Position numbers and translations under genes: made by a program
Shown here: piece after piece, positions 1-53,106 of the stretch
How the letters are laid out: each line of letters starts with the position of its first letter
Numbering within the stretch: position 1 is the first letter of the stretch
IMG/VR virus record: IMGVR_UViG_3300028908_000009
Coordinates: 2,786-66,785 of that record
Reading direction: 5' to 3' (one strand)
DNA: 64,000 bases
Origin: a virus
Notes under the pieces: model-generated
What the model saw: the letters and a program-made list of their open reading frames with translations, nothing else
Database searches by the model: none
Told to the model about the DNA's origin: nothing

Positions 1-3000
1 GCGAGGATCTGCTTGAGCCAGACGAGGCGGCCCATCAGGGCGGCCCGGTGGAGGGCCCACGGGTTCCGCTCCAGCTCGCCCTCGGCGATCCGCTCGTAGA
101 GCAGGCGGGGGGTGGGGGCCTGGAGCTCCGGCCCGATCACGGCCTCCATCCGCTTCGTGTGGGCGGAGAGGTTCTCCATCGTGAGCAGGAGGGTCCGCGT
201 CTCGGCCAGCAGGTCGGCGATGATGAGCTTCGTCCACTTGACGGGACCGAGCCGCTTCCCCTTCCGCAGGGTCGGGTTGACCGCCTCGATGTTCTCGCGG
301 ATCACCCGCATGTCCGCAGTCTCCGCCTCGTCCAGGGCGGCCTCGCGGAGCTTCGAGTAGTTCCGCAGCACCCGGTCCATCAGCTCCCGGGCCTTCTCGT
401 TCGGGCGACCCTGGTCGTCCTGGTGCGCCATCGTGACGGGCGGTAGGACGGTGTAGGGGTCGTCCACCGTGTCGAGGAAGTGGAAGTGCCGCGCGACGGC
501 GTAGAGAAGGTCGGGGTGCAGCTCGGACAGCTTCGACGGGTCCCGCGACCACTGGGCGACGATCTCCGCCGCCTCCTCCAGGGACAGCTTCCGCCCCTCG
601 CCGCGCCGCCGGGCGATGCCCCGCATCGCGTCCAGCTCGGTCCGCAGCTTCTGCGTGGCCGAGACCAGGAGCTTGTGCCGCTTGAGGGCGGCGATGAGGG
701 CCTCGTCGATCTGCGGGAGGAGGTCCAGCGGGGGCTCCCAGCCGAACGGGAAGATGCGCGACCCGTCCGCCATCGGCAGGCCCAGCTTCCGAAGCGCCCG
801 GAGCAGGTGGGCCTTGCGGACCTGGCGGTAGCGCCCGCCGGGCATGGAGAGCTGGCCGATCCGCCGGACGATCCAGGCGGCCCGCTCCGCGTCCGACAGG
901 ATCTCGAAGGCCCACTCCGGCAGCCCCTCGCCCCGGCGCGCGAGGTCGAGGGCCAGGAGCCGGGGGTCCTTCTCCATGACCATCTCGTACATGCCGTCGT
1001 AGGACTGGAGCACCGAGGTGGGGACCGGCAGCCCCTTCTCCAGGGCCTCGGCGATCGCCAGCAGGTGCTCCCGCTTGGAGGCGTCGGGGTGGAGCGCCTT
1101 CCACAGCGGCCAGGGCATCTTCCACGGGGCCGGCCCGCCGGCGGCGGTCATCGCCATCTGCCGCCAGGCCCCGGGTGCGAACTCCCCGAGATCCCGAAGC
1201 CGGGACCGGTCGAAGACGACGACCGCAGGCTCGTTGCCGTGGAGGGTGGCCCGCAGCACGACGCCGTCCGGCAGCGCGTCGGCGGGGTCGAGCCCCAGCG
1301 ACTCCGCCATCCTGGGCACCTGCCGGAGGACCTGCCGGATCGTCAGGTTCCGCTCGTGGACCTTCTCCGAGTCCAGCCTGCTCCAGACGCGCCGGGGGAT
1401 GGCCCCCAGGTCCAGCAGGCGGACCAGGCGAGCCTCCGTGGCGCGGGCGTCCAGGTAGAGCGACTGGACGCCGCGCACGTCCACCCAGTTCCCCTCGCCG
1501 AGGAAGACCTCCTTCTGCTCGACGTTCCTCTGCCGCCCACCCCGCAGGACCGGCACGGCCGGCTGCCGCCAGTGGTCGGCATCGAGCTGGAGGTAGAGCC
1601 GGGTCTTCACCGGCACGTCCCACCGGTTCGCCCACTCGGAGCCGGCCTGGAGAGCGGCCCAGTAATCCACCATGCGGAGGTTCCGCAGGTCCGCCAGCTC
1701 CTGGACCTCCACCGCCGTCAGCTTCTTCCCGGCGACGGCCAGCGGCAGGACCGTGGAGGAGTCCTTCACCACCGTCACCGCCGGCCGACCGGGCACGACG
1801 ATGTGAACGGCGTCGAAGGTGGACCCGCTGTCGTCCCACAGCCAGCGGAGGAACTCCACCACCGGGCGGGAGGGCGGCTTCGTGGGATGGAGCCCCTCGC
1901 GCAGGTCGCGGACGAACCGCGCCAGGTCGCCGCCGTACCGGGCCGTGACGAACCCCCGGAGGGTGCCGGGGACGTTGACGATGTCGTCACCCTCGGCGGA
2001 GACCTCCAGCACCAGCGGGTTCCCGGGGAAGACCCTGACCTCGTGGACGTAGCCGTGCCCGTTGACGGCCAGGGCGTCCACCGCGTCGGCCTCGTCCTCC
2101 CAGGCGAGGAGGAACCCGCCGCCCCCCGGGGGATGGCTCAGGCGGAGGGAGAGCCCGAGGGAGTAGACGTAGGCGAGGTGCCCGGGCCAGGCGAAGGGGT
2201 CTTCCCCGACGTACCGGGCTCCGGGGGCGGAGGGCTTCCGGTCGGCGAGGAGCTCGGGGAGGTCCTCTCGCCAGACGGGGAGCCTGAACCACCGGAGCTT
2301 TCGCCAGATCCGGCCAGCGGGTCGGGCCGCGAGAGAAGGCCGGCGATCCCTTCCCACATCGGAGCCTTCGCGCGGCGCTCGGGCGGCAAGCTGTCCACTG
2401 CCATCCGGTAGAGCTTCTCCACGTCCAGGCCCTCCCGCTTCGCCCGCCAGAGCATCGTTCGGAGATACGGGGATACCCCGTCGGTCCGCATCAGGGCCAG
2501 GAAGATGCCTACCTCCGCCCGGTGCTCCTCGGAGCTCAGGTAGATCGTCGGCGGCAGGTGCAGCCCCAGTTCTTCCAGCTTGCTCTTGTCCACTTTCTTC
2601 ACTGCTCATCCCCTTGATCGGGATATGCCCGAAGGTGTTTTTCTCCTTCTCGTAGAGCGCCCAGGCGGTCTTCGTGACCCTGACCGCCTCGACGAGCGCC
2701 TGGCGGTCCGCCATCAGCGTGTCGATCAGCTCCTTCCCGAGCCTGGCGAGCATCGGGGCGGCGTAGCGCGTGAGCTGCTGCACCGCCCACTGCCACTCGG
2801 GGGCCGTGTGGTCGAAGGCCCCTCCGCCGTGCGCGATCTCGTGGACCGCCACCTCGAAGAAGGTATCGACGATGCGCTCGACATGCACGCGCAGGTAGGA
2901 GGTGACGACCTCGTCCTCCTCCGGCGACAGCTCCCCCTCGGCCCACCGCTGGAGCTTGACCACGTCGTGCCTGTCGAAGCCGGCGTGGCGGAGGATCGTG

Positions 3001-6000
3001 ATCGGGTTGAGAACGTACCCACGGAGAGCCCGCGAGGCGTTCATCTCCTCGACGGGGAACCCCTCGCCCAGGATCTCCCGCAGCACCTTGACCCGTTCGC
3101 CTTCCTCCAACCAGTCCAGCGGCACGCTGCGGGAGTAGCCGAGCACGTTCGGCTTATCGGTCAGCTCCCAGCCGAGGAAAGGATTCACGCTGTAGGTGAA
3201 CCTTTGGAGACCGAAGCCGACCTGTCCGGGTAGGGGGATCGAGCCGAGCCCTAGCTCTTCCTTGGCGGGCAGTCCATGCTTGCCCAACAGCGACTCGACA
3301 TCCACCCGGAGCCGGGCCAGCACCGACAGGATGGAGGTGAAGAACTTCCCCTCCCGGATGCCCTTCACGACCAGCTTGCCGCCCGGGTCCTTGTCGAAGA
3401 CGTCGGTCGTTCGGAAGAGGTGGAACTTCTGCGGCTTGCCTCCGGCGTGTACGGAGGTCGGCGGCAGCTCGCCGTAGGACTCCTCGACATACTTGATCGA
3501 GAGCCGCCTGGCGGCGTCCTGCACGAAACTGTCGATCTTCTCCCGAATGATGTTCTGGACGGAAGATTGGTAGTTCGCCTTCAGGTCCTCCCGCGAGGGC
3601 AGGAAGGGATACTCCGCGTCCCGCTCCGGCACCTCCGGGTCGATGTCGATGAAGAGCGCGCTCCCGAGCTGGTTCACGATCTGGACGGTCTGGTTCCCGA
3701 GCAGGCTTATCACCGGCATGGTGAACTGCGGCAGCCCACGGATGGAGATGTGAGCGATGATCATCCGGCTGTGGCTGGGCAGGATGGCACCGGTCGATTT
3801 CTGCCCGATCCCCCACACCTGTACGTTGCTCTTCTTCAGGCTGCCCTCGATGGCCCCCGCGATCTCCGGCAGGGGCACGAGCCCGATGTCGGAGGCATCC
3901 ACGCCCTCCCCTCGCCAGAAGTCGTAGGCATCGTTTCCTACCAGCGGCCGCGTCGCCCCCTCGTTGTCCAGCCAGCCCGGGACCGGGAGCCCCAGCGACT
4001 TCAGTGCCTTCTTCAGCACCGGCAGCGGGAAGAACGACATGGCCCTGGACGGGCCGCTGTTCAGGCCCATCACCAGTTGCTGCAATGGAGTGGAGAGCAG
4101 ATGCCCCGATCCCAGGGCCTCTACCAACGAGGTGACCAGCTCCGCCCGCCGCTCATCGGGGGAGCAATACCACCACCACCGCTCGGCCAGTTCGGCGAGA
4201 CGCGAGCCCTCGGGAGCGATGGTCCCGATGGAGAGGTTCTGGATGGAGGCGCGAGGGTCATCCCCCATCACGAGGCCCTTCCAGGCGTCGGGGATCTCGA
4301 ACTCGAACCGGACCGCCTGGTCCAGCAGCCCCAGCTCGGCGTAGGACTGGAGGGTGAGGGCCCACTCCATCGTGGGTCGCAGGAAGCGGTTCAGCGCCGG
4401 GCCGGGGAGGCTCTCAAGGAAATCGTGCATCTGCTTCCCGGCCAGCTCCGCATCGTTGGGCGGGGCACCGTCGATGTAGCCGGGAAGCCGGGCCTCCGGC
4501 GGGTACTTCCAGCGGAGGATGTCGGTCTCCCTGTCACGCTCCATGTCGAAGAGCATGGAGGGGAACCGCATCGTGATCCGCGTGCCCATCGGGTCGTCGG
4601 GCCGGGCCGGCCGGGTCGTCATCCGGGCCTTCATCGTCTGCCGGTACTCGTGCGGATCGACTTCCAGCTCGGTGACGGTCGAGCCGTCGTTCGTCCAGAC
4701 CTGCACCTCCGAGAAGACGAAGATCGCCTTCGCGCCGATCCCGAACCCCCCGACGGTGCCCTCCTTCTCCTGGATCTTCACGTTCGCCAGGGAGAGGAAG
4801 TGCTTCCGGATCGTCTCTGGGCTCATCCCGTCCCCGTCGTCCTCGACCGTCAGGGCCAGGTTGGCCGGATCGACGGCGAGACGGATGCGCCCGCCGGTGC
4901 CGCCGTGTCGGCGGCGAACGGCCCCGAGAGCATTCTGCACGGCCTCGCGGATGGCGACGCCGACGGGGTGGGACTGGTATCGCCCGGCCGTCTGGTCGTG
5001 CAGGACGTTGGAGATGTTGATCTCGCCCCGCACCTCTTCCTGCGGCTCGCCCGCTTCCATCGGCTGCTCCCGCCACTCGTTCGGCTGCGGTGGGTACAGC
5101 TCGTCCTCGTTGTGCGCGTCGATGATCCGGATGTTCTCCGGATCGAGCACGGCGACGATGTCGTTGGGCGGCCCGAGATCGACGAGGTCGGTGAAGATCG
5201 CCCCGTCGTGACCACCCTTGATCGCGCGATCGACGTTCTCCCCCATGCCGACGAGGTTCCAGGGCTTTCCCTTCGCCGGGACGATGAGCGGGTTCCGGAG
5301 CCGAACGGCATTCCGCCGGATGAGATTGAGCTGGATCAGCCCGCGAGCGTGGACGAGCTTGACGAAGTAGTCGTCCGGGTCGGGCTGCTCCCCGGACATG
5401 TCCAGCGGCGGCTCGCGGAACCACTCCCTCGGGAGAGAGGTGAAGAGATCCCTCGCGGCCTCGACGAACCCCTCGGGAACGGGGTCATCAAGGTCCGCGT
5501 CCAGGAACTTGGGTAGCCGGAATAGCAGCCTGCCAATCAACCTCATGCCCAGCACGTAGGGGGCATGTGAGGCGTTGTACGGGATCTCCAGCTCGTTCTC
5601 GTAGAGGGTGCGATCCATCAGCGCGACTCTCGGCATCGCCATGGCGACGTGGGCGATGGGGGAGAGCAGCACGTGGTAAAGCAGCGTATCGTATCCCTCC
5701 AGCACGGCATCCAGGTAAACCCCGTACTTCTCCAGGAACTCCTTATCCGCCAGGTTCGTAAAGGCTGCATCCAGCAGCGTGTAGTAGAGGCGGACGACCT
5801 GACCGCCGGTCCACCCCAACCGCCTTACGATGGCTTGCCCGAGGTCGGCCATGAGCATGGCGGCGTGATCGATAGCCGCAGACTCCTTGTCGCCTTCCTC
5901 AATCCTCCTTGCCGCCGCCTTCAGTGCCTCGAACTCCGGCAGGCTCTGTACCTCGGGCGGAATGTCACGAGCCGTATAGCGCCCCGGCCCGTCCATGAGG

Positions 6001-9000
6001 GCTATCGTTCCGAACGTTTCAAGACGGTGCAGCGGGAAACCCGTATCGAGACTGGCCGCGAAATCGTATGCCCTGGCGAGGTGGGTGAGGGCCCCCGATC
6101 CGAGGAGGCGCTGAACGAACTCCCTTCCCCCCAGGCCGTAGGCGCACCACCAGCGCCACATGCTATCTATCCACTGGTCGGCCTCGGCCGCCTCCGTGTC
6201 ATCGTAGCCCGGGGGGAAGTCCAGCACTTCTTCGCTGTAGAGCTCATCGAGCGTCGCGGGGTCGAAGGCTTGTCGCTCAGGAAGGCGGAAAATCCCCTCC
6301 TCTACCAGGACCTGGATGGCCCTCTTCTCCAGGGGTTCGAGGGGGGCGAAGCCGAGCCCCTTGTTCGTCAACGCCATGCGGGCAATATTGCCGATGTTGC
6401 TGGAGGTAAAGGTGGCATGGGACGCCCCGAAGATGGTATGGAAGAGGAGACCGGTCGGGACGGCCCACGTGAACGCCGCACGCCTCGTGGTCATATACAA
6501 CCACGCTTCTCGGACACGAGGGTCGGGATGGTTGAGAAACCCCATCTCGACGATGAAGACGAAAGGCCCCTCGTAGAGGTCATGCTGGAAGCCCGGCCAG
6601 GCGAGCAGCGCAGCCAGCCCCCGCTTCATCGGATCGGCGTCGAGAAGCTGGTTCTTGACGATGGGCTTTGCCGCCTTCTCCAGCGCCGCGTGGAGCACCC
6701 CCAGCAGAGGTGCCCGGTTCCCCGGGGAGGCATCCAGCTTCGTGAGGAGGGTCCACGTGGCCGGCTCGACATACTCGGCGAGGTAGCGCTGCTGGGCCTT
6801 CATCATCTGTAGGGGCGTCGGGACCTCGCCCTCCTCCAGGTTCCAGGGCAGGGGGATCCGTGGGGGAAGCGGAGCATTCTTGTCCACGAGCCAGCGCAGC
6901 TTCGGCATCGATTCGAGCAGCCGTCGGGCTTCCGCTCCCCAGGTTCCGCTCGACGCCAGCACCTCCTTCATGGCGCGCCTGACCTTGTCAGGCCCGGAAA
7001 CCATGGCGAGGAATCCAAGCCCGCTGATGGTGGACACGTAGGCGGCGATTCCCTGGGAGGTACGTACCTCCGTTGGAGGGGAGGATCTGTAACCCCTCTT
7101 CAGGTCGGCCTTGATTCGGAGGGCCCACCAGATCAGTCCATCGGACACCTCGCCCAACGGGTCCCGCGACTCCTCGCCAAAGCGAAGTGGATTACGATAC
7201 GACGGCTTGTGGAAGAAGGTATGCAGGCTCTTCCGGAGCACGGAACCCGAGGGGAGGGTGGCCCATTCGAGGGGGAAGCTGGACGGGACGCTCCCGGTGA
7301 AGGTCTTCTCCACGAGCTGGGGCCAGCGCCGACGAAGCTCCTCGACGGCCGTCTTCCACATCTCCAGCCGACGACGCCTGGCCTCCTCGCTCTCGCCCAC
7401 GTAGGCCCGCCTGACGATGATTTGCTTCTGGTACTTGAAGAAGACCTTGAAGTCGTCCCGTGCGGCCGTCCTGGAGAAGTGCGGCTCAGCGGGAAGAGCC
7501 TTCTCCGCTGCCCACGCCAGCTTGTTGAGCGCCAGCTCGGTGAACGAGCGGGAGGTGACGGGGTCGGTGGCGGCCCACACGGCCATCCTGGCCGAGTAGG
7601 CACCGGTCACCTCTCCCAGCCTCTCCTTCTCGTACTGGAGGAACGTCGGGTCGGCCGTCCCGTGGTAGAAGATGATCGGCGAGCCGTCCGGGTGAACGAG
7701 GACCGAGTCCTGGACCCACTTCCAGATCGGCCACGTGCTGTCGTCGTCCCCCACCTCCATCGCCTGCTGCTGCCACACGGGCGTGGCGATGGTCGGCTCG
7801 GTCGCGTCCTCCGCCTTCGCGCGGGCGTTCAGGACCTTCTTCGCCTGCCGAACGAACTGGCGAGCCGCCAGCCACCCGCCGGCCTTCTCGTAGCCGTCCG
7901 CCTGGCGGAGGACGGCCGCCGCGTCGGAACCGTCCCGCTCGACGACGTCCGGTCCCGGCGGGGCCTCGGGCAGCTCCTCCTCCAGCTCGGAGATGGTGTC
8001 TCGCAGGGCCTGCACCTCCCCCTTCGTCAGCTCCCGGGGGCTCTCCAGCCGCTCGACCGCCTCGGCCGCCCGGCTGAGGATGTCCGGCTCGACGCCCATC
8101 ATCTCCCGCCGGGCCTGCTCGAACTCGGCTGCCGCCCGGGGATCGACCTCCGCGAGCCGGAGCTCGCCCCGGTCGGTCAGCTCCCACCGGACGGGCAGGC
8201 CGGGCACCGGCGTGAACGACCAGCCGGGCCCGGCGAGGTCGTGGTAGCGGACCGGCGTGATCCGCCCGGACCGGTCCTGGAACCACGGCTCGCCGGCCCA
8301 CTGCACGACGGCGAGCCTGTCCCCGGAGGGCGTCCGAGCGACGCCGATGGCGATCGGCTGCTCCTCGTCGAAGCCGGCGAACGCCCGCGAGGCGGCCACC
8401 TTCTGCTGCTTCGCCGCCTCCCAGGGACGGGTCTCCCAGTCCCGGGCCGAGGGAACGGCCAGCTCCTTCCCGAGCGGGATGTTGATGTCCCCCCGCACGG
8501 GCTCCGGCGCGGGCCCCTCGCCGTCCGCCTCGATCGCCCGGGCCTCCTCCCGCGTCAGGACGGTTCGGACTGGCTTCGCCTCCGCCCCGCTCGTGAAGGT
8601 GGCGACGACCTCCCGGGGGCCGAGGTCCTCCAGCCGCGCCCGGGTCTTCGCCTTCACCCGCTCCCGCAGGGCGGTGAACTCGTTGGGCCGATCCTCGCCC
8701 CGGAGGAACTGCGGCAGGTCGGCCCCGAGGGCCTGCACGTCCTCCCACCGGTAGACCCGGACCCGGCCCGTTCGCGGGTCCCGCGCGACCAGCGGGGGGA
8801 CGGGCACCCCTGCCTCGTCCAGCCGGCCGGCCAGCTCCAGCGCCGGCGCGAGGAGGCCGGGCAGGGAGCCGTCCTGCATCGCCGGCGGGTCCGGGAGCTG
8901 CACGTCGTGCCGGTTGGCCGCCTGTACCAGCTCGTCCGCCCAGCGGACCACGGCGGCCCGACCGGCGACCTCCACCACGCCCGGACCCCGCAGCCCGGGC

Positions 9001-10943
9001 TCGCGGAAGAAGGCGTCGGTGTCGATCCCGAGCAGGCGATCGACCCTCCGAACACCCTCCGCCGAGCCGGCCAGCCGGCTGGCCTCCTCGATGACGGCCA
9101 CCGCACCGGTGTTGGCCGCCGCCAGCTCGGCGTCCGACATGGTGCCCAGGGCCGGCCGGAGGAACTCCAGGTCCTCCGCCACCTTCTCGGCCACCTCGAT
9201 CGGGCGCGGGTCGCCCGTCGCGTCCACGGCCTCCCTCGCGTGCCGGCGGGCCGTGTCGAGCCGCGCCGAGGCCCAGAGAGGCGAGGCCGCCATCTGCGGG
9301 TCCCGGACGCCCTGGGGCTCCGGGGCGGGCGCGGGAGGCCCCTCCGCGCGCGTGAGCGGCCGGACCTCCGGGATCGGCGTCTGGAGCACGCCCGGCGTCG
9401 CCCGGGGCACGGGCTCGACCGGGGGAGCCGGCGGCGGCGTGGCGGCCGCTTCCCCGGCTTCGAGGAGCGGGCGCTCCCCGGCCCGGGCGGCCAGCTCCGG
9501 CACCGGTCCCTGGGGCACGGGCCGCCCGGCGAGCAGCTCGCCGCCGAGCCGGCCCGCCGCAGCCAGCGGGCCGAAGAGGGCGGCCCCACGGGCGATGGCG
9601 GACGCCTCGGCCCCGAGGGCCTGCCCGGGGGTGATCTCCCCGGACAGGGTCCGGCCGGCCAGCTCCGGGGCCGCGTAGGCCCCCGTGAACCCGCCGGCCA
9701 CGGTAGCGTGCCGGACGCCGGACGCCCCGGCCTTCAGGGCCAGCTCGCCGATCCGCCGGCCGGCCGTCTGGCGAACGATCCGAAGCCCCAGCTTCCCGCC
9801 CTGCCGCTTCGCCACGCTCCGCAGCAGGTCGATGGCCCGGTCCACCAGGACCTGGTCCGCCTCGGGCGGGAGGATCACCTTCATCCCGCCCTTCCCCCCG
9901 ACCACCCGCGCGCCGGCCCGGTCGAGCATCTCCGCCGCCCGGGACAGCTCCCAGGTGGAGAGCCCGAGCTCCCGGGAGCCGAACCGCCCGGTGACGGAGA
10001 ACAGCCGGCGGAGGACCGGCCCGAACGCCTCGGCGACGGTGCTGCCGCCCACCTGGACGGCCAGCTTCTCCAGCGGGGAGGCCAGGAGGTTCCCCGCCCG
10101 CAGCAGGCCCCGACCGAGGAGGCCGGCCGGGCCGGAGAACAGCATCCCCGCGACCTCGGCCTTCGTCCGGGCCTCCCGGGGGACGCCGCCCAAGAGGGAG
10201 AACTCCTCCTCCGCCCGCCGCCAGCGCTCGGAGAGGGCCGGCAGGTTGAGCGCCCAGCCGCGCACCCCGGCCATCCCCATCGCCGCCGCGCCCGCCCACG
10301 GGTGCTGCTGGCGGGAGAGGATGAGCGCCCGCGTTCGCAGCCGGCGGGAGAGGTCCGGGTCGTTCTCCTCGCCCTCGAAGATGGGGACCCACACGGTGCG
10401 CCCGGGAGCCCCCGGGCCGGGCAGCGCGGTGCCGGCCAGGCCGAGCCGCCCGGCCTCCTCCCGCTCGGGCCCAGGCAGCTCCCGCGAGGGGGCGAGGTGG
10501 TAGGGCCGGATGGAGATGACCCGCCGGCGCTGCATCGAGGAGTACGGCTGCCGCACCGTGCGCCCGAGGCCACCGGGGACGTGGCGGTCCTCCCACCCTT
10601 CCGGCGGCACCATCTCGCCGCCCGGGGGCTGGATCGCCCCCTGCTGGAGCATTCGGAGCGTCTCGCCGCCGATCTCCCGGAAGCGCCGGCCGGCCTCGGG
10701 CGGAGGAGTCGCCGCCACCCGCCGAGCCAGCTCGGCCCGCATCCCCGCGAGCGGGTCTGCGACGGCGGGAGGCTGGAGCTCGGGCTGCCCGGGCGCTGGC
10801 TCGGTGGAAGCAGGAGAGGCCGCCGCGCCGGAGAGCGCGGGCTCCTTCGCGGGCGTCCCTCCCGCCGGCAGGTCGGGAGGGGCCGGCGGATTCGGCTGCT
10901 GGAACCTGGGATCGACTCCCGCGTTCAGCGGCGTGAGCGCCAT
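1..10943 (-). CDS. Giant polyvalent internal virion/ejection protein (>3,600 aa, runs off window): ART-like + GHKL ATPase + HExxH zincin domains
   Basis: ATG 10943 after AGGAGG; track lists no terminated ORF in this frame and antisense shadow ORFs (48, 480, 2580, 3276, 5649, 7209) are all in register; motifs IIFYHGT..LRNPL..GHDG, EAVQN/DDGDGM/GGFGIG/GTRI, VHEIAH. Confidence 0.88.
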   Translation of the reverse strand, partial: MALTPLNAGVDPRFQQPNPPAPPDLPAGGTPAKEPALSGAAASPASTEPAPGQPELQPPAVADPLAGMRAELARRVAATPPPEAGRRFREIGGETLRMLQQGAIQPPGGEMVPPEGWEDRHVPGGLGRTVRQPYSSMQRRRVISIRPYHLAPSRELPGPEREEAGRLGLAGTALPGPGAPGRTVWVPIFEGEENDPDLSRRLRTRALILSRQQHPWAGAAAMGMAGVRGWALNLPALSERWRRAEEEFSLLGGVPREARTKAEVAGMLFSGPAGLLGRGLLRAGNLLASPLEKLAVQVGGSTVAEAFGPVLRRLFSVTGRFGSRELGLSTWELSRAAEMLDRAGARVVGGKGGMKVILPPEADQVLVDRAIDLLRSVAKRQGGKLGLRIVRQTAGRRIGELALKAGASGVRHATVAGGFTGAYAAPELAGRTLSGEITPGQALGAEASAIARGAALFGPLAAAGRLGGELLAGRPVPQGPVPELAARAGERPLLEAGEAAATPPPAPPVEPVPRATPGVLQTPIPEVRPLTRAEGPPAPAPEPQGVRDPQMAASPLWASARLDTARRHAREAVDATGDPRPIEVAEKVAEDLEFLRPALGTMSDAELAAANTGAVAVIEEASRLAGSAEGVRRVDRLLGIDTDAFFREPGLRGPGVVEVAGRAAVVRWADELVQAANRHDVQLPDPPAMQDGSLPGLLAPALELAGRLDEAGVPVPPLVARDPRTGRVRVYRWEDVQALGADLPQFLRGEDRPNEFTALRERVKAKTRARLEDLGPREVVATFTSGAEAKPVRTVLTREEARAIEADGEGPAPEPVRGDINIPLGKELAVPSARDWETRPWEAAKQQKVAASRAFAGFDEEQPIAIGVARTPSGDRLAVVQWAGEPWFQDRSGRITPVRYHDLAGPGWSFTPVPGLPVRWELTDRGELRLAEVDPRAAAEFEQARREMMGVEPDILSRAAEAVERLESPRELTKGEVQALRDTISELEEELPEAPPGPDVVERDGSDAAAVLRQADGYEKAGGWLAARQFVRQAKKVLNARAKAEDATEPTIATPVWQQQAMEVGDDDSTWPIWKWVQDSVLVHPDGSPIIFYHGTADPTFLQYEKERLGEVTGAYSARMAVWAATDPVTSRSFTELALNKLAWAAEKALPAEPHFSRTAARDDFKVFFKYQKQIIVRRAYVGESEEARRRRLEMWKTAVEELRRRWPQLVEKTFTGSVPSSFPLEWATLPSGSVLRKSLHTFFHKPSYRNPLRFGEESRDPLGEVSDGLIWWALRIKADLKRGYRSSPPTEVRTSQGIAAYVSTISGLGFLAMVSGPDKVRRAMKEVLASSGTWGAEARRLLESMPKLRWLVDKNAPLPPRIPLPWNLEEGEVPTPLQMMKAQQRYLAEYVEPATWTLLTKLDASPGNRAPLLGVLHAALEKAAKPIVKNQLLDADPMKRGLAALLAWPGFQHDLYEGPFVFIVEMGFLNHPDPRVREAWLYMTTRRAAFTWAVPTGLLFHTIFGASHATFTSSNIGNIARMALTNKGLGFAPLEPLEKRAIQVLVEEGIFRLPERQAFDPATLDELYSEEVLDFPPGYDDTEAAEADQWIDSMWRWWCAYGLGGREFVQRLLGSGALTHLARAYDFAASLDTGFPLHRLETFGTIALMDGPGRYTARDIPPEVQSLPEFEALKAAARRIEEGDKESAAIDHAAMLMADLGQAIVRRLGWTGGQVVRLYYTLLDAAFTNLADKEFLEKYGVYLDAVLEGYDTLLYHVLLSPIAHVAMAMPRVALMDRTLYENELEIPYNASHAPYVLGMRLIGRLLFRLPKFLDADLDDPVPEGFVEAARDLFTSLPREWFREPPLDMSGEQPDPDDYFVKLVHARGLIQLNLIRRNAVRLRNPLIVPAKGKPWNLVGMGENVDRAIKGGHDGAIFTDLVDLGPPNDIVAVLDPENIRIIDAHNEDELYPPQPNEWREQPMEAGEPQEEVRGEINISNVLHDQTAGRYQSHPVGVAIREAVQNALGAVRRRHGGTGGRIRLAVDPANLALTVEDDGDGMSPETIRKHFLSLANVKIQEKEGTVGGFGIGAKAIFVFSEVQVWTNDGSTVTELEVDPHEYRQTMKARMTTRPARPDDPMGTRITMRFPSMLFDMERDRETDILRWKYPPEARLPGYIDGAPPNDAELAGKQMHDFLESLPGPALNRFLRPTMEWALTLQSYAELGLLDQAVRFEFEIPDAWKGLVMGDDPRASIQNLSIGTIAPEGSRLAELAERWWWYCSPDERRAELVTSLVEALGSGHLLSTPLQQLVMGLNSGPSRAMSFFPLPVLKKALKSLGLPVPGWLDNEGATRPLVGNDAYDFWRGEGVDASDIGLVPLPEIAGAIEGSLKKSNVQVWGIGQKSTGAILPSHSRMIIAHISIRGLPQFTMPVISLLGNQTVQIVNQLGSALFIDIDPEVPERDAEYPFLPSREDLKANYQSSVQNIIREKIDSFVQDAARRLSIKYVEESYGELPPTSVHAGGKPQKFHLFRTTDVFDKDPGGKLVVKGIREGKFFTSILSVLARLRVDVESLLGKHGLPAKEELGLGSIPLPGQVGFGLQRFTYSVNPFLGWELTDKPNVLGYSRSVPLDWLEEGERVKVLREILGEGFPVEEMNASRALRGYVLNPITILRHAGFDRHDVVKLQRWAEGELSPEEDEVVTSYLRVHVERIVDTFFEVAVHEIAHGGGAFDHTAPEWQWAVQQLTRYAAPMLARLGKELIDTLMADRQALVEAVRVTKTAWALYEKEKNTFGHIPIKGMSSEESGQEQAGRTGAAPAADDLPELRGAPGGGRHLPGPDADRRGIPVSPNDALAGEAGGPGRGEALPDGSGQLAARAPREGSDVGRDRRPSLAARPAGRIWRKLRWFRLPVWREDLPELLADRKPSAPGARYVGEDPFAWPGHLAYVYSLGLSLRLSHPPGGGGFLLAWEDEADAVDALAVNGHGYVHEVRVFPGNPLVLEVSAEGDDIVNVPGTLRGFVTARYGGDLARFVRDLREGLHPTKPPSRPVVEFLRWLWDDSGSTFDAVHIVVPGRPAVTVVKDSSTVLPLAVAGKKLTAVEVQELADLRNLRMVDYWAALQAGSEWANRWDVPVKTRLYLQLDADHWRQPAVPVLRGGRQRNVEQKEVFLGEGNWVDVRGVQSLYLDARATEARLVRLLDLGAIPRRVWSRLDSEKVHERNLTIRQVLRQVPRMAESLGLDPADALPDGVVLRATLHGNEPAVVVFDRSRLRDLGEFAPGAWRQMAMTAAGGPAPWKMPWPLWKALHPDASKREHLLAIAEALEKGLPVPTSVLQSYDGMYEMVMEKDPRLLALDLARRGEGLPEWAFEILSDAERAAWIVRRIGQLSMPGGRYRQVRKAHLLRALRKLGLPMADGSRIFPFGWEPPLDLLPQIDEALIAALKRHKLLVSATQKLRTELDAMRGIARRRGEGRKLSLEEAAEIVAQWSRDPSKLSELHPDLLYAVARHFHFLDTVDDPYTVLPPVTMAHQDDQGRPNEKARELMDRVLRNYSKLREAALDEAETADMRVIRENIEAVNPTLRKGKRLGPVKWTKLIIADLLAETRTLLLTMENLSAHTKRMEAVIGPELQAPTPRLLYERIAEGELERNPWALHRAALMGRLVWLKQIL
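2138..2602 (-). CDS. Nested alternate-frame gene inside the giant ORF, unknown function
   Basis: GTG with AAGGGG upstream; first ~95 codons have G/C third positions and globular composition while the giant frame becomes a G/R/A/P linker there. Confidence 0.7.
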   Translation of the reverse strand: MKKVDKSKLEELGLHLPPTIYLSSEEHRAEVGIFLALMRTDGVSPYLRTMLWRAKREGLDVEKLYRMAVDSLPPERRAKAPMWEGIAGLLSRPDPLAGSGESSGGSGSPSGERTSPSSSPTGSPPPPEPGTSGKTPSPGPGTSPTSTPSGSPSA

Positions 10944-25183: not shown

Positions 25184-25975
25184 TCAGATCCTCACCGTGT
25201 AGGTCGTGTCAGGCCGCCCAGCGAGGTTCCAGGAGCGGGAGACCTCCATCGGGATGATGCCGCTGTCCGTCACGCGGTCGATCCGGGCGGCGGCCTGGCG
25301 GGCCCCCCGGAGGGCCTCCTGGAAGTCCCGCCAGAAGGTGGCGACGACCGCCGGGTTGTCCCGGTGCTTCCGCTTCACCACGAAGTATTCCCCGCCCGCG
25401 ACCAGGGCCTCCCGCATCTCGGGCGTGAGGAAGAGGGTGTCCTGGCTCCCGAACGCCGCCACGCGCCGGAAGTAGGGAATCTCGATCCGCCGGACCGTGT
25501 CCCCGTCGATCGGTGGCCAGAGATGGACCTCGTCGTCCTCCGGGGAGGCGATGGAGAGCAGCTCCGGGATTCCCGAGGCCGAGGAGGTGTTCCGGCTCGT
25601 GTAGCTGCGGAAGAGGAACCAGGGGGCCCAGGCCGGGAACTTCACGACGTTCCCGTCCTCGTCGTAGACCTTCGCTCCCCGTGCCGGCCAGGCCCAGTCG
25701 TCCGGCAGGGAAAGGACCTCCGCGTCGTCGGTGAACTCGGTCTCGCCGGGAGAAGAAGCGGCGTAGGTCCAGGTCGCCACCGTGCGGGCCGAGAGCCAGA
25801 TGCCGGCCGCGTTCATCCGGGCGGCGGCCCGGTGGAGACAGGCCATCGCCTCCTGCCGGGCCAGGGGGTTGTCCTGTTGCCCCAGCAGGGCGGCCACCTC
25901 CGAGACGATGGCGTCAACCGGCTCCAGGTTCGGGGCCGTCCCCTCCGGGGGCGTCGGGGTCAGGCGATCGCTCAT
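25184..25975 (-). CDS. Head-tail adaptor (tubular protein A-like)
   Basis: LSLPDDW...VHLWP.....IEIPYFR pattern; synteny. Confidence 0.7.
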   Translation of the reverse strand: MSDRLTPTPPEGTAPNLEPVDAIVSEVAALLGQQDNPLARQEAMACLHRAAARMNAAGIWLSARTVATWTYAASSPGETEFTDDAEVLSLPDDWAWPARGAKVYDEDGNVVKFPAWAPWFLFRSYTSRNTSSASGIPELLSIASPEDDEVHLWPPIDGDTVRRIEIPYFRRVAAFGSQDTLFLTPEMREALVAGGEYFVVKRKHRDNPAVVATFWRDFQEALRGARQAAARIDRVTDSGIIPMEVSRSWNLAGRPDTTYTVRI

Positions 25976-27098
25976 CGGGCAGCGCCTCCGCGTCCTCCCG
26001 CCCGGTGATCTTCGGACGGCTGCGGACGTCCTCGATCACATCTTCCCACACGGAGGCGAGGTGGTCCACGGTGGCGGTGTCCAGCACGAACTGCCGGGCC
26101 CGGCGCACCAGCGGCTCCAGGAGCGCCGGGTCGGTGGCGAGGTCCCGGAGGGTGTCGTGCCAGGCCGATGGGGTGTTCGGGATCGTGACGGCCACGTCGG
26201 ACGGCAGCTCGGCGTAGGGCCCCACCCGGCTGGCGAGGAAGGGAATCCCCTGGACGGTGGCCTCTAGGAACTTGATGGAGGACTTCGCCAGGTTGTAGGG
26301 GTGCTCCGCCAGCGGGGCGATCGCCAGGTCGAACCCGCCCCAGGCCACGGCGGCGGGGTAGTCCTCGAAGGGCACCCAGGGGCAGAGGATCACCCGGCCC
26401 GGGTGCCGGCGGCGGAGGTCGTGCAGCCACTTCGGGATCGAGCCGAAGCAGACGAGGCGGACCGGTCGCGGGGGGTTCTCCAGGAACCGCTCCAGCCCCG
26501 GCCGGGCGACGTCCATGTCCCCGTAGTGCCCCCCGGCACCCCCGTAGAAGATTCGGAAGGCGGGGTCGTTCCGGCGCTCCGGGTCCACCGGCAGCCCGGT
26601 CCAGTCGGCCGGGTCGATCATGTTCGGGACCACCCGGATCGCGTGGCAGCGGGAGCGGAAGCGGTCGGCCAGGGCCCGGGTCGTGACGGTGGTCAGCTCG
26701 GCCCACATCAGGTGCCAGAGGCCCGTCTCGTAGCACTTCTGGCCCGGGTTGTAGTGCTTCCGCCCGGGGTTCCAGGGGGGCACCTGGAGGAAGTCGTCGT
26801 CGAAGTCCACGATCATCCGGCCGTCCGGGATCCTGTGCCGCAGGCCGACCAGGAAGCCCAGCCGGCCCGGGTCGATCTCCCGGTCAACCACCACCACGTC
26901 GTGGTTCGCCGCCTGCTCCGCCACCCAGGCGGCGCGCTCTTCCGGCGTCCGCCCCCAGGTACGGGACCAGGGGCGGTCCTCCCGCCAGGTGACGGGCCAG
27001 CCGGCCCGGGAGAGCGCCCGGGCCGGCACCCACTGCCGGTAGTAGCCCACCGCCGTCTGCTGGCGGTGGAGGAAGAGTACCCGGGGCCGGTCCGCCAC
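25914..27098 (-). CDS. Glycosyltransferase, GT-B/GT4-like
   Basis: YYR..P, DFDD, VVPN, DLAIAPL...N.AKSSIKFLE motifs. Confidence 0.9.
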   Translation of the reverse strand: MADRPRVLFLHRQQTAVGYYRQWVPARALSRAGWPVTWREDRPWSRTWGRTPEERAAWVAEQAANHDVVVVDREIDPGRLGFLVGLRHRIPDGRMIVDFDDDFLQVPPWNPGRKHYNPGQKCYETGLWHLMWAELTTVTTRALADRFRSRCHAIRVVPNMIDPADWTGLPVDPERRNDPAFRIFYGGAGGHYGDMDVARPGLERFLENPPRPVRLVCFGSIPKWLHDLRRRHPGRVILCPWVPFEDYPAAVAWGGFDLAIAPLAEHPYNLAKSSIKFLEATVQGIPFLASRVGPYAELPSDVAVTIPNTPSAWHDTLRDLATDPALLEPLVRRARQFVLDTATVDHLASVWEDVIEDVRSRPKITGREDAEALPDERSPDPDAPGGDGPEPGAG

Positions 27099-27894: not shown

Positions 27895-28601
27895 GGCCAG
27901 TAGGCTCCCATCCGGCGCAGGTGGGCCTCCGCCGGCGAGTCCTGCGCCTCCAGCCGGTCGGTCGGGTGGAGGACGCGGATGTTGGGGAATCGGACCTGGA
28001 GCCCGCCCACCCGCTCCAGGTAGGCGGCCAGCGACTCGGGATCCCCGCGCCGCCGGGGGGCCTCCAGGTCGGGAGAGTAGCCGGCCAGCAGGGCCACCGG
28101 GTGGAGCCGGCAGGCCCCTCCCAGCCGGGCCATCAGCTCCGCCGGGAACCGCTGCCCCACCCGCAGGACCCCGACGGGCTGGAGCGGGTTCCGCAGGCCG
28201 ACGACCTTCGGGGCGGCCACGATCCGGTCCACCGGGTCGCCCGCCCGCTCCCGCAGCTCCTCGACCTGCGCGACCATCTTCTTCAGCCACCGCTTCGTGC
28301 GGAAACGCACGTCGTCGTCCAGCCGGAGCAGCCAGCGGTAGCCCCCCTGCCGGGCGAGGGCCAGGGCCTCCGCCGTGGCGTGGTGCTGGCCCCGGTTCTC
28401 CGGCCACTCGACCAGGTGCTGGATCCCCGTCCGGTCCGGCTGGTGGAGCAGCTCCCGGGCGACGGCCACCTGGCGGGGCGAGGCTCCCGACAGCACCACC
28501 AGCCAGTCGAACCACGTCCCGGCCGTCCCCCGGGCCTGTCGCACCAGCCCGCGAAGGAAGGACCGGTCCCCGTGGGTGACGGTGAAGGCCAGGATGCTCA
28601 C
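27870..28601 (-). CDS. Glycosyltransferase, GT-A/GT2-like
   Basis: EN.G..HA..EA and LRLDDD (DxD); GTGA overlap. Confidence 0.8.
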   Translation of the reverse strand: MSILAFTVTHGDRSFLRGLVRQARGTAGTWFDWLVVLSGASPRQVAVARELLHQPDRTGIQHLVEWPENRGQHHATAEALALARQGGYRWLLRLDDDVRFRTKRWLKKMVAQVEELRERAGDPVDRIVAAPKVVGLRNPLQPVGVLRVGQRFPAELMARLGGACRLHPVALLAGYSPDLEAPRRRGDPESLAAYLERVGGLQVRFPNIRVLHPTDRLEAQDSPAEAHLRRMGAYWPWIDPTRT

Positions 28602-29395
28602 CGGCCCGTCCCTCCCTCGGCGTCGTCCAGCGGCGGCAGGTTCGACGGGGGCTTCGGCAACTGGACCGGCTCCCACCGGCGGGTGAGCTGGAGGTTGCAG
28701 CCGTGCCAGTGATAGATGTTCGTCGCGGCATCGACCGCCGCCCCGGCGAGCCCGTCCAGCGTGGCGAGCCGGACCACCAGGTCCCAGTCGCCGAACCGCA
28801 TCATCTCCGGGTTGAAGACGTGCCCGTCCCGGTAGTTGAGCCGGAAGAGCGCCCCCTTCGAGACGATCATGTCCCCCGAATCGACGAAGTTGTGCGTCGG
28901 GCCGAGGAAGAGCCGCCGGACGTTCTCCGGGGTCCAGGGCACGAGCGGCGACGGACCCTCCGGCAGGCCGGACGGCAGGAGGCCCTGGTCCTCCCGCACG
29001 TACCGCCGGCGCGTGTAGGCGAGGGCCGGCCGCTGGGAGCCCGCCACGGCCCGGAGGAGGACCTCCAGGTGGTTCGGCTCCCACTCGTTGTCCGCGTCGA
29101 GGAAGGCGATCCAGGGGGCGCTGGACCAGGGGATCACCATGTTGCAGGGGATGGCGAAGTAGCCCGTGCGCTGCGGCGTGTAGGTGAAGCCGCCCACCAG
29201 GCCGTCGGGCTGCCCCACCGACTCCTCGAACTCCCGGATGCGGGGGCACTCGTCCGGCGAGCCATCGACGACGACGAACAGCTCGAAGTCGGAGCGGGGG
29301 ACGGTCTGACCCAGGACCGACTTCCAGGCCCGGGGAAGGAACTCGGCGTACGCCTCGTGGACGCGGAGGAGCACGCTGACGAGCGGGTCGTGCAT
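28598..29395 (-). CDS. Glycosyltransferase family 2
   Basis: PLVSV..SVLGQT..VVVDGS..IAFLDAD..DWDL. Confidence 0.92.
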   Translation of the reverse strand: MHDPLVSVLLRVHEAYAEFLPRAWKSVLGQTVPRSDFELFVVVDGSPDECPRIREFEESVGQPDGLVGGFTYTPQRTGYFAIPCNMVIPWSSAPWIAFLDADNEWEPNHLEVLLRAVAGSQRPALAYTRRRYVREDQGLLPSGLPEGPSPLVPWTPENVRRLFLGPTHNFVDSGDMIVSKGALFRLNYRDGHVFNPEMMRFGDWDLVVRLATLDGLAGAAVDAATNIYHWHGCNLQLTRRWEPVQLPKPPSNLPPLDDAEGGTGR

Positions 29396-49946: not shown

Positions 49947-51422
49947 TTACTCCTCCTCTGGCGGCGGTAGCCAGTAGACCGGCCGGTCCTTCCGGCGCAG
50001 GAGCTGGCCGGTTGCGGTGAGGTGGTCGAGGGTCGCCCGGATGACGGCCGGGTCCTCGTCGAGGTAGCTCTCGATCTGCCGCCGGCTGACCCGCCCCTTC
50101 GAGTCCGCATGGACCTCCGGTGGAGGTTCCGCCACGAGCCGCAGGATCGTCTCCGCGAGGTCCTTCCGCTGCCTGGCCCCGGAAGCCATGCTCGGCAACG
50201 CGAGGGCGGCAGGGGGCACGAGGCGCAGCGAGAGGGGCCCGTCCGGGCTCCGGTGGCCGTGCAGACGGAGCACGAGGGGCGGAGGAGTCGGACCCTCCCG
50301 CAGCTTGGCCCACGAGAGCTTCCGGACGGGCTGGTCCTCTTCCTCCCCGGGAAGGCGTCCCTCCTTCTGCTCGACCTGGAGGAGCATGGCCGCATCGACG
50401 GCCCCGACGATGTCGGCCCCGGCGATGTCGTCCTGCACCCCGAGGCGGCGCTTCTCCCCGGGCGGCATCTTCCGGGTGTGGTGGAGGAACATCACGGCGC
50501 AGCCGTAGGTGGCAACGAGCGGGTAGACGTGCTGGTGGAAGAACTGGCGGGTAGCGGCGGCGTCCACCTCCGAGCCCGTGCGGACGGCCCGGAGGGAGTC
50601 GATCACGAGCAGGTCCGGCCGGATGTCGGCCAGGGTCTCGTGCAGGCGGGAAACCCAGTCCCGCGAGCGGAAGCTGAAGCCCTGCCTGGGCTTCGTCCAC
50701 CAGAACGTCCGGCCGACTACCTCGTCCAGCTTGACGCCCATGCCCCGGGCGAGCCGGAGCAGCCGGCCGGCGGCCTTGTGCGGGTGCTGTTCCTCGTCCA
50801 CCAGGAGGACCCGGACGGGCCGCTCCGGCCCCAGCCAGGCCCCCAGCGGGTTGGCGTCACCGACGGCCAGGGAGAGGGCCAGGGATGCCGCCAGGAGGCT
50901 CTTCCCGGCGGCCGGTTCCCCAGCCAGGACGAGGATGTCCCCCCGGGCCACCAGCCCCTCGACGAGCCAGGTAGGTCGGGGCATCTCCAGCGGCGGGTCG
51001 TCGATCGCCATTCCCCGGCTAGCCGCCGATCCCCGTGGCAGGCGGGCCAGCCGCTCCAGCACCTCGTCGTCGAACGGGTTTTCGGCCAGCTTCTCGACCA
51101 GGGTCAGCCGCTCGTGCTTCCGCAGCAGCACCCCCACCGACCGGGCCAGGTAGGCGGGATCCTTCGGGACGAACCCGTCCAGCCGGCGGGACAGCTCCAG
51201 CATGTCCTTGTCGGACAGGTTCGCCTCGTCCCGCAGGCGTTCGATCGTGATCGGCTCCCCACGTCGGGCGAGGGCGAGGATGGCCCGCCACACCCGGGCG
51301 GGGAGGCCGATCAATGGTGGAACTTCAATCCATGCCTCCGGAGAGACCTCCCCACTCAATAGGCAGGTCGTCGATAGTTCCCAGACCCGCTCCCCCAGCG
51401 TCTCCAGCAACCTCGTCCTCAT
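49947..51422 (-). CDS. RepA/AAA_25-type replicative helicase
   Basis: WLVEGL..GEPAAGKS, LLVDEE, LLVIDSL, HHTRK, K.R. Confidence 0.88.
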   Translation of the reverse strand: MRTRLLETLGERVWELSTTCLLSGEVSPEAWIEVPPLIGLPARVWRAILALARRGEPITIERLRDEANLSDKDMLELSRRLDGFVPKDPAYLARSVGVLLRKHERLTLVEKLAENPFDDEVLERLARLPRGSAASRGMAIDDPPLEMPRPTWLVEGLVARGDILVLAGEPAAGKSLLAASLALSLAVGDANPLGAWLGPERPVRVLLVDEEQHPHKAAGRLLRLARGMGVKLDEVVGRTFWWTKPRQGFSFRSRDWVSRLHETLADIRPDLLVIDSLRAVRTGSEVDAAATRQFFHQHVYPLVATYGCAVMFLHHTRKMPPGEKRRLGVQDDIAGADIVGAVDAAMLLQVEQKEGRLPGEEEDQPVRKLSWAKLREGPTPPPLVLRLHGHRSPDGPLSLRLVPPAALALPSMASGARQRKDLAETILRLVAEPPPEVHADSKGRVSRRQIESYLDEDPAVIRATLDHLTATGQLLRRKDRPVYWLPPPEEE

Positions 51423-51909
51423 CGTCCACCTCGTCTTCCGAGACCTTCTCCGGGCGGCCCGTCGGTGTCGGCGGCAGGCCGAGCTGCTCCCGCTTGCGGC
51501 GACACATCTCCGCTACGCTCAGCCCTTCCTCCACCCACTTCCAGTAGTCCTCCACCCACTCCCGCTTGACCGTTCGCGGAGAGCCGGCCCGGACGTGCAG
51601 GCGGTTCTCGCCCTGGAGCCGCTGGATCAGCGCCTGCTCGAACTCGTGCAGCTCGTCGAGCGAGACGCCGACGCCCCGGGCGATGGCGACGATGGTGGAC
51701 CACTTCGGGGTCTGCATGACACCCCGTTCCAGCCGGGTGACGGTGTGGGAGGACCTCCCGGCCCGCAGGCCGACCTTCCGAATCGACAGGCCCTTCCGCA
51801 CCCGGAGGGCCCGGAGGATCATCGCCACCGGCGGCGGATCGTAGGGAAAGGTCGGATCCTTGGCGGGCCAAGTCCTGTGTTTGGCGTATTTGTCGTACCA
51901 CGCTGCCAT
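51325..51909 (-). CDS. XRE-family HTH regulator
   Basis: LR.RKGLS..V..LERG...P...I..IA...GV; AGGAGG RBS. Confidence 0.85.
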   Translation of the reverse strand: MAAWYDKYAKHRTWPAKDPTFPYDPPPVAMILRALRVRKGLSIRKVGLRAGRSSHTVTRLERGVMQTPKWSTIVAIARGVGVSLDELHEFEQALIQRLQGENRLHVRAGSPRTVKREWVEDYWKWVEEGLSVAEMCRRKREQLGLPPTPTGRPEKVSEDEVDDEDEVAGDAGGAGLGTIDDLPIEWGGLSGGMD

Positions 51910-51956
51910 GACAGCCTCCTTTTCGGGGACGCCTCAGCCTACGGGAAAAAAAGATC

Positions 51957-51985
51957 TTGCACCAGGTGCCCCCTCGGCGTACACT
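51957..51985 (+). promoter_or_regulatory. sigma70-type promoter with UP element
   Basis: A7 run then TTGCAC-N17-TACACT. Confidence 0.75.
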
Positions 51986-52014
51986 CCCAACGTCGTCGAG
52001 TGGAGGAGAAAAAA

Positions 52015-53106
52015 ATGAATCCCAGGAACGAGTCCAACCCCGCCTCTCCTGGCGGGCTCACCCTCCCCCCGGAACTGGCTCCCTTCGGCGGTCGCGGCCC
52101 GGCCCATCGGAAGGGTCTCAAGCTGCTGGTCTCCGGGCCGCCGAAGACCGGCAAGAGCTTCTTCGCCGCCCACGCCCCCCGGCCCCTCGTCGCCTTCGAT
52201 TGCGGCGAGGCCGGGATCCAGCCCTACCTCCAGCCGGACGACGTGTGGCTGGAAGTCACGGGGCCGGCGACGGCGAAGGCGGCCATCGACTGGGTGATGC
52301 AGCACGAGGACGAAATCGCCACCCTCGTGATCGACCCGGTGACTACCCTCTGGTCCGACTGGATGGACTACTGGGCGGCGAAGCTGGAGTCCGAGGGCAA
52401 GCTGAACGCCGACGGCCAGATCCACGTCGGGAGCTGGCGGAAGATCAAGGGGCCGTGGAAGAGGAACATCTTCTTCCCGCTCCAGCGCGCGCCCTTCCAC
52501 GTGATCCTGACCGCCTGGCCGAAGGAGCTGGAGATCAGCGAGGGCGACGCGCCCCCGGGGATCCGTGGCGGCCTCCAGATCAAGAAGGTTGCCGAGGCCC
52601 AGGTGGAGAAGACCCTGCGCTACCTCTACGACCTCTGGCTCCAGACGGGCGTCGAGCTGGACGAGCTGAACCGCCCCACGAGCCGCCATTGGATCCGGCT
52701 GGCCGGCGGGCGGCGGCCGATCACGGTCCCGCCGAGCGAGTTTTACACCGGTCGGGTCTGGCGTTTCGATGCCCGGAAGCCGGAAAATCCTTGGGAGAAG
52801 GTGGTCGGGCCGTGGCTCGACGCCTGGCAGAAGAGCCCGGCGGCCGTGGAGCACCTTGGCCCGCGCGATCCCGAGGAGGCCGCCGCCGCGATGGCGGAGA
52901 TGGTCGCCGAGGAGATCGAGGCCGAGGTCGGGCGCTTCATCACCGCCCTTGAGGAGGCCGAGACGTTGTCGAAGCTGCGCGACGTCTGGTCCAACATCGT
53001 GTCGGAATGGGCCGGGCTCGACGCCCGGCACAAGGCGGCCCTCGAACGGGCCAAGGACCGCCGCAAGGCGGAGCTTCAGAAGGCCGAGCAGGCCGGGAGG
53101 AAGTGA
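52015..53106 (+). CDS. AAA_24 / Sak4-like ATPase
   Basis: GPPKTGKS, TLVIDP, HVILTA; next to SSB. Confidence 0.85.
   Translation: MNPRNESNPASPGGLTLPPELAPFGGRGPAHRKGLKLLVSGPPKTGKSFFAAHAPRPLVAFDCGEAGIQPYLQPDDVWLEVTGPATAKAAIDWVMQHEDEIATLVIDPVTTLWSDWMDYWAAKLESEGKLNADGQIHVGSWRKIKGPWKRNIFFPLQRAPFHVILTAWPKELEISEGDAPPGIRGGLQIKKVAEAQVEKTLRYLYDLWLQTGVELDELNRPTSRHWIRLAGGRRPITVPPSEFYTGRVWRFDARKPENPWEKVVGPWLDAWQKSPAAVEHLGPRDPEEAAAAMAEMVAEEIEAEVGRFITALEEAETLSKLRDVWSNIVSEWAGLDARHKAALERAKDRRKAELQKAEQAGRK

Follow-up and report, generated by a model that had tools for sequence, protein, structure and literature searches.

We analyzed a 64,000-nucleotide (nt) stretch of viral DNA, called the window below, which covers bases 2786–66,785 of the 66,785-bp IMG/VR record IMGVR_UViG_3300028908_000009; all coordinates are window positions. 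The record is a linear, ~80% complete metagenome assembly. The G+C (GC) content of the window is 69%. A single sequencing run containing the sequence was found; it is labelled hydrothermal vent metagenome and is probably the source sample of the record. The window encodes on its minus strand a podovirus-like structural block with a T7-like structural gene order, and in it a giant open reading frame (ORF) of 4,491 codons (13.4 kb) in the whole record. A small ORF, nested in the +1 frame of this giant ORF, is the subject of this report. The features at the locus are as follows.

3–10943, minus strand: giant ORF, with 3,647 codons in the window; it extends past the window start and lies downstream of the gene for an SLT-domain protein
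4560–4958, minus strand: GHKL-type ATPase domain, giant-protein residues 1996–2128 (PF13589, 4.3e-07; PF02518, 4.8e-07)
2829–2843, minus strand: HEIAH motif, giant-protein residues 2701–2705; motif only, no family match
2610–2615, minus strand: AAGGGG, a Shine-Dalgarno (SD)-like element 7 nt before the GTG, shared with the gene for an 844-residue protein at 16488
2606–2608, minus strand: TGA, in frame with the nested (+1) ORF and separated from its GTG by 3 nt
2138–2602, minus strand: nested ORF of 154 residues with a GTG start, in the +1 frame of the giant ORF and wholly inside it
2312–2602, minus strand: +1-frame coding segment, the GTG and 96 further codons, with GC of 0.69/0.43/0.89 at the three codon positions
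2313–2609, minus strand: giant-frame reading of the same bases, forming a spacer of 99 codons with neither a coding signature nor predicted secondary structure
2311–2317, minus strand: 3′ change point, where by the codon model the coding signature returns to the giant frame
2138–2311, minus strand: tail of the nested ORF, 57 codons and a TGA, 89% Gly/Pro/Ser/Thr with no hydrophobic residues

The GHKL ATPase is the only profile-detected domain of the 4,491-residue giant protein, in which profile searches detected no MuF or toxin domain. Like the T7-like internal virion proteins of the gp14–gp16 type, the protein is encoded at the end of the structural block, after the SLT-domain protein. Unlike them, it matches no PHROG or phage record itself, and it is solely the position of its gene which suggests that it may be ejected from the virion.

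Coding signatures of the two frames

The codon usage of the giant gene changes frame abruptly and then changes back. In 90-nt windows, the GC content at third codon positions (GC3) of the giant frame was 0.90–1.00 at 2965–2665, 0.33–0.47 between ~2605 and 2365, and at least 0.90 from 2275, and GC3 of the +1 frame was 0.87–0.93 at 2545–2365. The original prediction, made by a model from the letters of the DNA, had described a giant frame that stays open but reads like filler at ~2610–2310 and a +1 frame with G/C-ending codons over the same bases, which is what these values show. A codon model with two change points outperformed a single-frame model by 95 nats; it located the 5′ switch at 2603 (near-equal alternatives 2606 and 2594) and the 3′ switch at 2311 (near-equal alternatives 2314, 2317, 2308 and 2320). 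The return of the bias had likewise been predicted to lie near 2310. Along the giant ORF, 23 of about 895 sliding windows favored another frame, and apart from four isolated ones they were contiguous (19 windows at 2618–2348).

An independent codon model, trained on 23 other genes and used to scan 24 genes (39,237 nt), returned two off-frame runs, the nested segment and one at the 5′ end of the gene at 49947–51422. The nested segment is the only frame switch inside a gene among the 24 genes scanned. The other run covers nt 30–120 of its minus-strand gene, probably because the start was set too far upstream, or it may reflect an overlap with the ORFs at 51202–53106 (plus strand) or 51325–51909 (minus strand).

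The pattern of GC over the three codon positions in the +1 segment matches that of the genes of this phage, and the excess of the first position over the second supports the minus strand as the sense strand. The synonymous-codon score of the segment was −0.95, at the 8th percentile of 224 windows; phage genes scored −0.71 ± 0.16. Because the score is within the gene range, the codon usage of the segment appears to be native to the phage, not imported. Its 97 residues are 35% hydrophobic, compared with 30–34% in the real parts of the giant protein. AlphaFold2 run on the single sequence of the small ORF, without an alignment, predicted a helical bundle (helices at residues 25–39, 45–56, 61–70, 74–77 and 83–90) with a predicted local distance difference test (pLDDT) of 86–92 at residues 31–90 and a disordered tail from about residue 95. 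The hydrophobic content and the confident model agree with the predicted globular look of the product. Thus, the +1 frame is a genuine protein-coding frame over 2602–2312.

The giant frame over the same segment has a different character: 76% of its residues are Gly, Ala, Pro, Arg, Asp or Glu, 11% are hydrophobic, and its codon score is −2.09. A 501-residue model of the giant frame showed a spacer without secondary structure; since this model was poor throughout (mean pLDDT 38.9), only that absence is informative. Downstream of the switch the roles are exchanged. The 57-residue end of the nested ORF, correctly foreseen as a Ser/Pro/Gly tail, has a codon score of −1.56 and arises because the following real part of the giant protein is read off-frame, a by-product that any gene with C-ending codons would give. 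The two frames take turns, and functional, constrained sequence was not found in both of them over the overlap.

The two edges of the segment

At the 5′ edge, the sequence from 2615 to 2600 reads AAGGGG, A, TGA, GCA, GTG and sits exactly at the change point. The start had been predicted as AAGGGG, seven nucleotides and GTG, and this is found, with AAGGGG at 2615–2610 and the GTG 7 nt later. Gene junctions in this phage are stereotyped: an SD element of the GGAGG or AGGG type is followed after 0–4 nt by the stop of the upstream gene (usually TGA), three nucleotides and ATG or GTG. Examples are seen at 16488, 17036, 27098, 41211, 42132 and 44173. The junction of the nested ORF is nearly identical to those before the genes at 16488, 27098 and 17036. 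The motif of SD, stop, three nucleotides and start occurs 17 times in the record as compared with 6.35 ± 2.2 times in 100 shuffles, suggesting tight translational coupling throughout the phage; judged from flanking GC3, about 11–12 of the 17 are real junctions. From the density in the shuffles, the chance of a random motif falling within ±10 nt on that strand is ~1e-3.

Other features of the site also resemble a gene start. The 75 nt around the GTG have 54.7% GC, a value in the lowest 1% of giant-ORF windows that matches the minimum among 37 real starts (whose mean is 65.8%), and the first codons of the nested ORF are Lys-rich, like those of several small genes of this phage. The codon bias of the upstream giant frame persists right up to the SD element. 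The TGA at 2606–2608 holds the position that the stop of the upstream gene has at true junctions; it shares the frame of the GTG and is offset by 1 nt from that of the upstream coding sequence. Judged by these sequence features, the nested ORF has a credible ribosome-binding site and start.

The 3′ edge is plain. No SD element, start or stop was found around 2311–2317, nor any X XXY YYZ heptamer over 2300–2330, and there was no unusual RNA structure (z = −0.26). Between 2700 and 1000, the only SD-bearing start codon in the giant frame is at 1484. The full codon bias of the downstream ~1,700 codons already begins at 2312 and there is no SD-bearing start nearer than 1484, so this downstream body has no start of its own and can be translated only by ribosomes arriving from upstream.

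The edges also bear on whether the ribosome itself changes frame, with a +1 shift near 2603 and a −1 shift near 2314 that would place the helical domain inside the giant protein. An SD-like element stimulates +1 shifting in prfB, and here such an element stands just upstream of the 5′ edge. However, the 5′ site has no slow or stop codon and the 3′ site no heptamer, RNA folding is ordinary at both (z = −0.72 at the 5′ site), and two shifts in one gene would be required. We give programmed recoding almost no credence.

A pair of compensating indel errors would give the same picture, and such an artefact could be suspected since short G and A runs adjoin the 5′ edge and the record is a metagenome assembly. 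When we compared 1600–2969 with a Logan contig from the source run (8,987 nt long, at a word depth of 16.6), however, there were no differences and no gaps, and no indel was listed. The check for compensating indels that the original prediction had called for thus found a second assembly identical over this range, as contigs rather than raw reads. No second intragenic frame switch occurs in 39 kb of genes, which makes paired indel errors unlikely, and removal of a base at the 5′ edge would put the TGA in frame instead of yielding a continuous protein. We regard the DNA sequence as correct and an artefact as very improbable.

No variants that would show purifying selection on the small ORF were seen within 1600–2969. 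This range is invariant, unlike the adjoining 2970–3031, about 45–65 codons upstream of HEIAH, where a minor strain (contig depth 3.88 as against 11.4) shows six differences in 62 nt. In the giant frame two of these are synonymous and four alter residues, two of them within one codon. The changes are not adenine-specific and are therefore unlike those in the target of a diversity-generating retroelement.

Possible origins of the frame switch

A native-style junction whose stop is 1 nt off, a sharp 3′ edge free of signals and a downstream body without a start of its own are explained most simply by a bridged gene boundary. There would originally have been two genes, an upstream one of ~2,778 codons ending at the TGA and a next one starting at the GTG; the latter may have been a separate small gene whose end was lost, or may have encoded an N-terminal domain belonging to the downstream protein. 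The upstream gene would have been welded to the downstream body by two frame changes, a 1-nt one that fell after the ribosome-binding site but before the TGA, and a second one at 2311–2317. Ribosomes would now miss the out-of-register TGA, read ~99 Gly/Ala/Pro/Arg-rich spacer codons and re-enter the true frame at about 2312. The bypassed helical domain of ~90 residues would be left with an intact initiation site, and the small ORF is probably still made, as a protein of 154 residues consisting of 97 native ones and the 57-residue Ser/Pro/Gly off-frame tail. We give this fused gene junction with a still-translatable small ORF a probability of roughly 50%. The history, the translation of the small ORF and any function it has are what we infer from one sequence.

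The GC content of the genome makes such a fusion easy to picture. In the frame that the giant gene uses to cross the segment, stops account for 24 of 4,491 codons. Off-frames rarely carry stops at 69% GC, so that a one-base slip at a stop can fuse genes via a harmless spacer. Within the segment, GC3 of the giant frame is still only 0.33–0.47, and therefore either the +1 frame is still constrained or the event is recent.

Several points weigh against the fused junction. Nothing at the 3′ edge looks like the relic of a gene boundary, and a second, unexplained frame change must therefore be assumed. Some 5–6 of the 17 motifs are not at real junctions, so motifs of this kind do occur by chance. 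Both frames are open at the level expected by chance: after synonymous recoding of the segment the giant frame stayed open in 36% of trials (P = 0.36), and after recoding of the next 59 codons the tail stayed open in 71% (P = 0.71), which gives no sign of selection for or against the overlap. Internal initiation may be impeded by ribosomes that translate the giant frame. The Logan contig comes from a second assembler on the probable source sample and is not a second data set. Among the sequencing runs found, there was no RNA run containing the locus, and neither the peptide nor its flanks had a homologue in any collection searched.

The same or a similar history may have left a dead relic: an untranslated or functionless +1 ORF whose codon signature survives as a recent fossil, with the giant fusion alone being of importance. 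The openness of the frames at chance level, the lack of homologues or variants showing purifying selection and the origin of the tail as a pure off-frame by-product all fit such a relic. The initiation signals, however, are intact and typical of this phage, and the giant-frame third positions have not drifted from 0.33–0.47 toward the ~0.9 of the genome, which fits constraint or a very recent event. We consider the relic unlikely, although it deserves to be taken seriously.

Alternatively, a single continuous gene may have been ancestral, in which an in-frame domain of ~97 residues was later scrambled by a pair of natural indels compensating each other; the start signal would then be a coincidence. 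Two sharp change points ~290 nt apart with the outer frame restored would be expected from this, and so would a 3′ edge without a gene-boundary relic. On the other hand, the SD/TGA/NNN/GTG arrangement, the GC dip and the Lys-rich N-terminus would all have to fall at the change point by chance, the motif alone at ~1e-3, and this makes the continuous gene improbable.

The search for relatives covered sequence, family and fold. An exhaustive HMMER search of 1.84 billion representatives with the peptide gave three matches at E ≤ 0.001 but no true homologue; these three were repeat proteins aligned in seven, two and three stretches and were judged spurious. Phage tblastn with the peptide gave no match, and pattern scans with it confirmed 0 of 26 matches in viral contigs, 0 of 589 in metagenome contigs and 0 of 463 in genome contigs. 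Pieces of the giant protein retrieved only the giant protein itself among 3,371 candidates and nothing among 7,999 and 8,000 others; they had no phage match by blastn or tblastn, and their pattern scans confirmed 0/1, 0/123, 0/93 and 0/22. No paralogue of the nested segment exists within the record. The one related record found, IMGVR_UViG_3300005096_000060 (29,472 bp, 35% complete; large terminase 68–70% identical), has no match to residues 1–3000 of the giant protein or to the nested peptide, and probably ends before the giant gene.

The peptide and both flanks had no family in Pfam, PHROGs, NCBIfam or PADLOC. In the Atlas, the best score of the peptide was 0.79, below the usable level. A fold search with the peptide model gave none of 77 PDB matches and none of at least 500 BFVD matches at E ≤ 0.001, the best E values being 0.3 and 0.14. 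A ribbon-helix-helix at residues 18–56, proposed from the sequence pattern alone, was dropped as it had no profile or fold backing.

The proposed partner, related systems and neighboring genes

The original prediction had placed the nested gene directly after a metallopeptidase domain and taken it for the antidote or partner of that enzyme, brought in as a cassette inserted mid-gene and kept by overprinting. The distance it gave, ~75 codons from HEIAH to the start, is accurate (76 codons counted from HEIAH to the GTG). HEIAH is followed in the giant protein by GGGAFD, giving HExxHxxGxxD, which we take to be a snapalysin-type pattern, and HExxH is expected by chance 0.11 times in a protein of this composition. 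Beyond the motif itself, however, no peptidase family gave a usable match to the region in Pfam, NCBIfam, PADLOC, the PDB sequence search or the Atlas; weak rows (E ≥ 0.045) were unrelated proteins, and the AlphaFold2 model covering the region, the 501-residue one described above, was too poor for a fold search.

A small ORF acting as the cognate antidote or partner of the preceding HExxH module, and embedded so as to neutralize the effector during assembly, would suit the short distance from HEIAH and a junction signature which suggests that a gene once ended after the HExxH module with the small ORF directly behind it. The inferred order would then resemble toxin-then-immunity loci, as far as the available text of two reports describes them (PMC5576092, PMC3482391). 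The enzyme assignment, however, is a motif only; the peptide has no homologue, no immunity, antitoxin or defence family and no fold match; a search for homologues of the GHKL–HExxH module with a downstream partner found none; and the chance-level openness of the frames shows no selection. Co-folding the peptide with residues 2480–2778 of the giant protein gave a score of 0.00, 'no answer', which counts neither way. We hold an antidote to be quite improbable, and hold to be equally so the fuller proposal in which the product of the small ORF, translated separately and maintained, acts as an inhibitor or chaperone for the HExxH module of a virion-delivered giant, with the out-of-frame crossing evolved to keep both on one transcript.

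Of the earlier interpretation, then, the coding +1 frame, the start signals and the filler-like giant frame stand, and the enzyme, the antidote, the insertion and the overprinting are not supported. Against an inserted cassette are the phage's own codon usage and a native-looking junction 1 nt out of frame, which points rather to a bridged boundary; overprinting gains no support from the chance-level openness of both frames. One lead survives: supposing that the upstream gene formerly ended at the TGA, the HExxH stretch would have been near the C-terminus of its product, with the start of the small ORF 3 nt behind the stop. An antidote would be the more important finding if true, but it is currently unsupported.

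The comparison with polymorphic and MuF toxin-immunity pairs runs both ways (available text of PMC5576092 and PMC3482391). As in those pairs, a possible enzyme motif is closely followed by a small ORF. Unlike in them, HExxH is at residue 2701 of 4,491 and not C-terminal, the small ORF is nested and out of frame, and no toxin or MuF domain, immunity family or co-travelling relative was found here.

The nearest described phenomenon is out-of-frame gene fusion and remodelling, at least in the part of the source available; out-of-frame fusion of neighboring genes has been proposed there as a source of out-of-frame remodelled genes (Watson et al. 2021, PMC8788219). Like the remodelled genes in the available text of that paper, the giant ORF contains a part that is an alternative-frame reading of real coding sequence, joined to in-frame parts. 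Unlike those genes, here the alternative piece is internal (ORF-ALT-ORF) in a 4,491-codon gene of a phage virion module, and the parent coding frame remains in the same DNA with an intact start. The paper, in the same text, recognizes remodelling by a parent homologue (PMC8788219); for the present locus no similar gene was found in frame elsewhere in the collections searched.

If the fused junction is true, a giant phage ORF is growing by swallowing a neighbor gene. Very long virion proteins might then arise by this route among others, and very long ORFs in GC-rich viral contigs may conceal gene boundaries and small genes. A narrow literature search found no description of such an arrangement in a giant phage virion gene. 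The nested GTG is a concrete candidate case for an initiation site buried in a translated ORF. In phage lambda, Rz1 is encoded in the +1 frame relative to Rz. As with Rz1 in Rz, to the extent covered by the available text of two reports (PMC5295617, PMC6139136), the large ORF here fully encloses a smaller one that is in another frame of the same strand and has its own start. Unlike Rz/Rz1, where both frames are functional according to the same text, the outer frame here has no coding signature over the domain and the inner frame has none over the tail (PMC5295617, PMC6139136).

The remaining genes of the minus-strand structural block were assigned as follows.

Minus strand: large terminase (phrog_38, 1.7e-59)
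Minus strand: SU10-type portal
Minus strand: major head protein (phrog_1357, 1.6e-34)
25914–27098 and 28598–29395, minus strand: two glycosyltransferase-like genes (phrog_7162, 1.7e-29; weak GtrB-like matches)
Minus strand: tail protein, with a weak match to the T7 tail-fibre N-terminal
Minus strand, directly before the giant ORF: 807-residue SLT-domain protein, matching 'internal virion protein with endolysin domain'

The two glycosyltransferase-like genes interrupt the structural module, with the capsid genes on one side and the tail genes on the other. On the plus strand, one ORF at 61408–63999 joins a family A DNA polymerase (PF00476, 7e-30) to an N-terminal domain of the uracil-DNA glycosylase superfamily (PF03167, 1.3e-10), and it continues beyond the end of the window.

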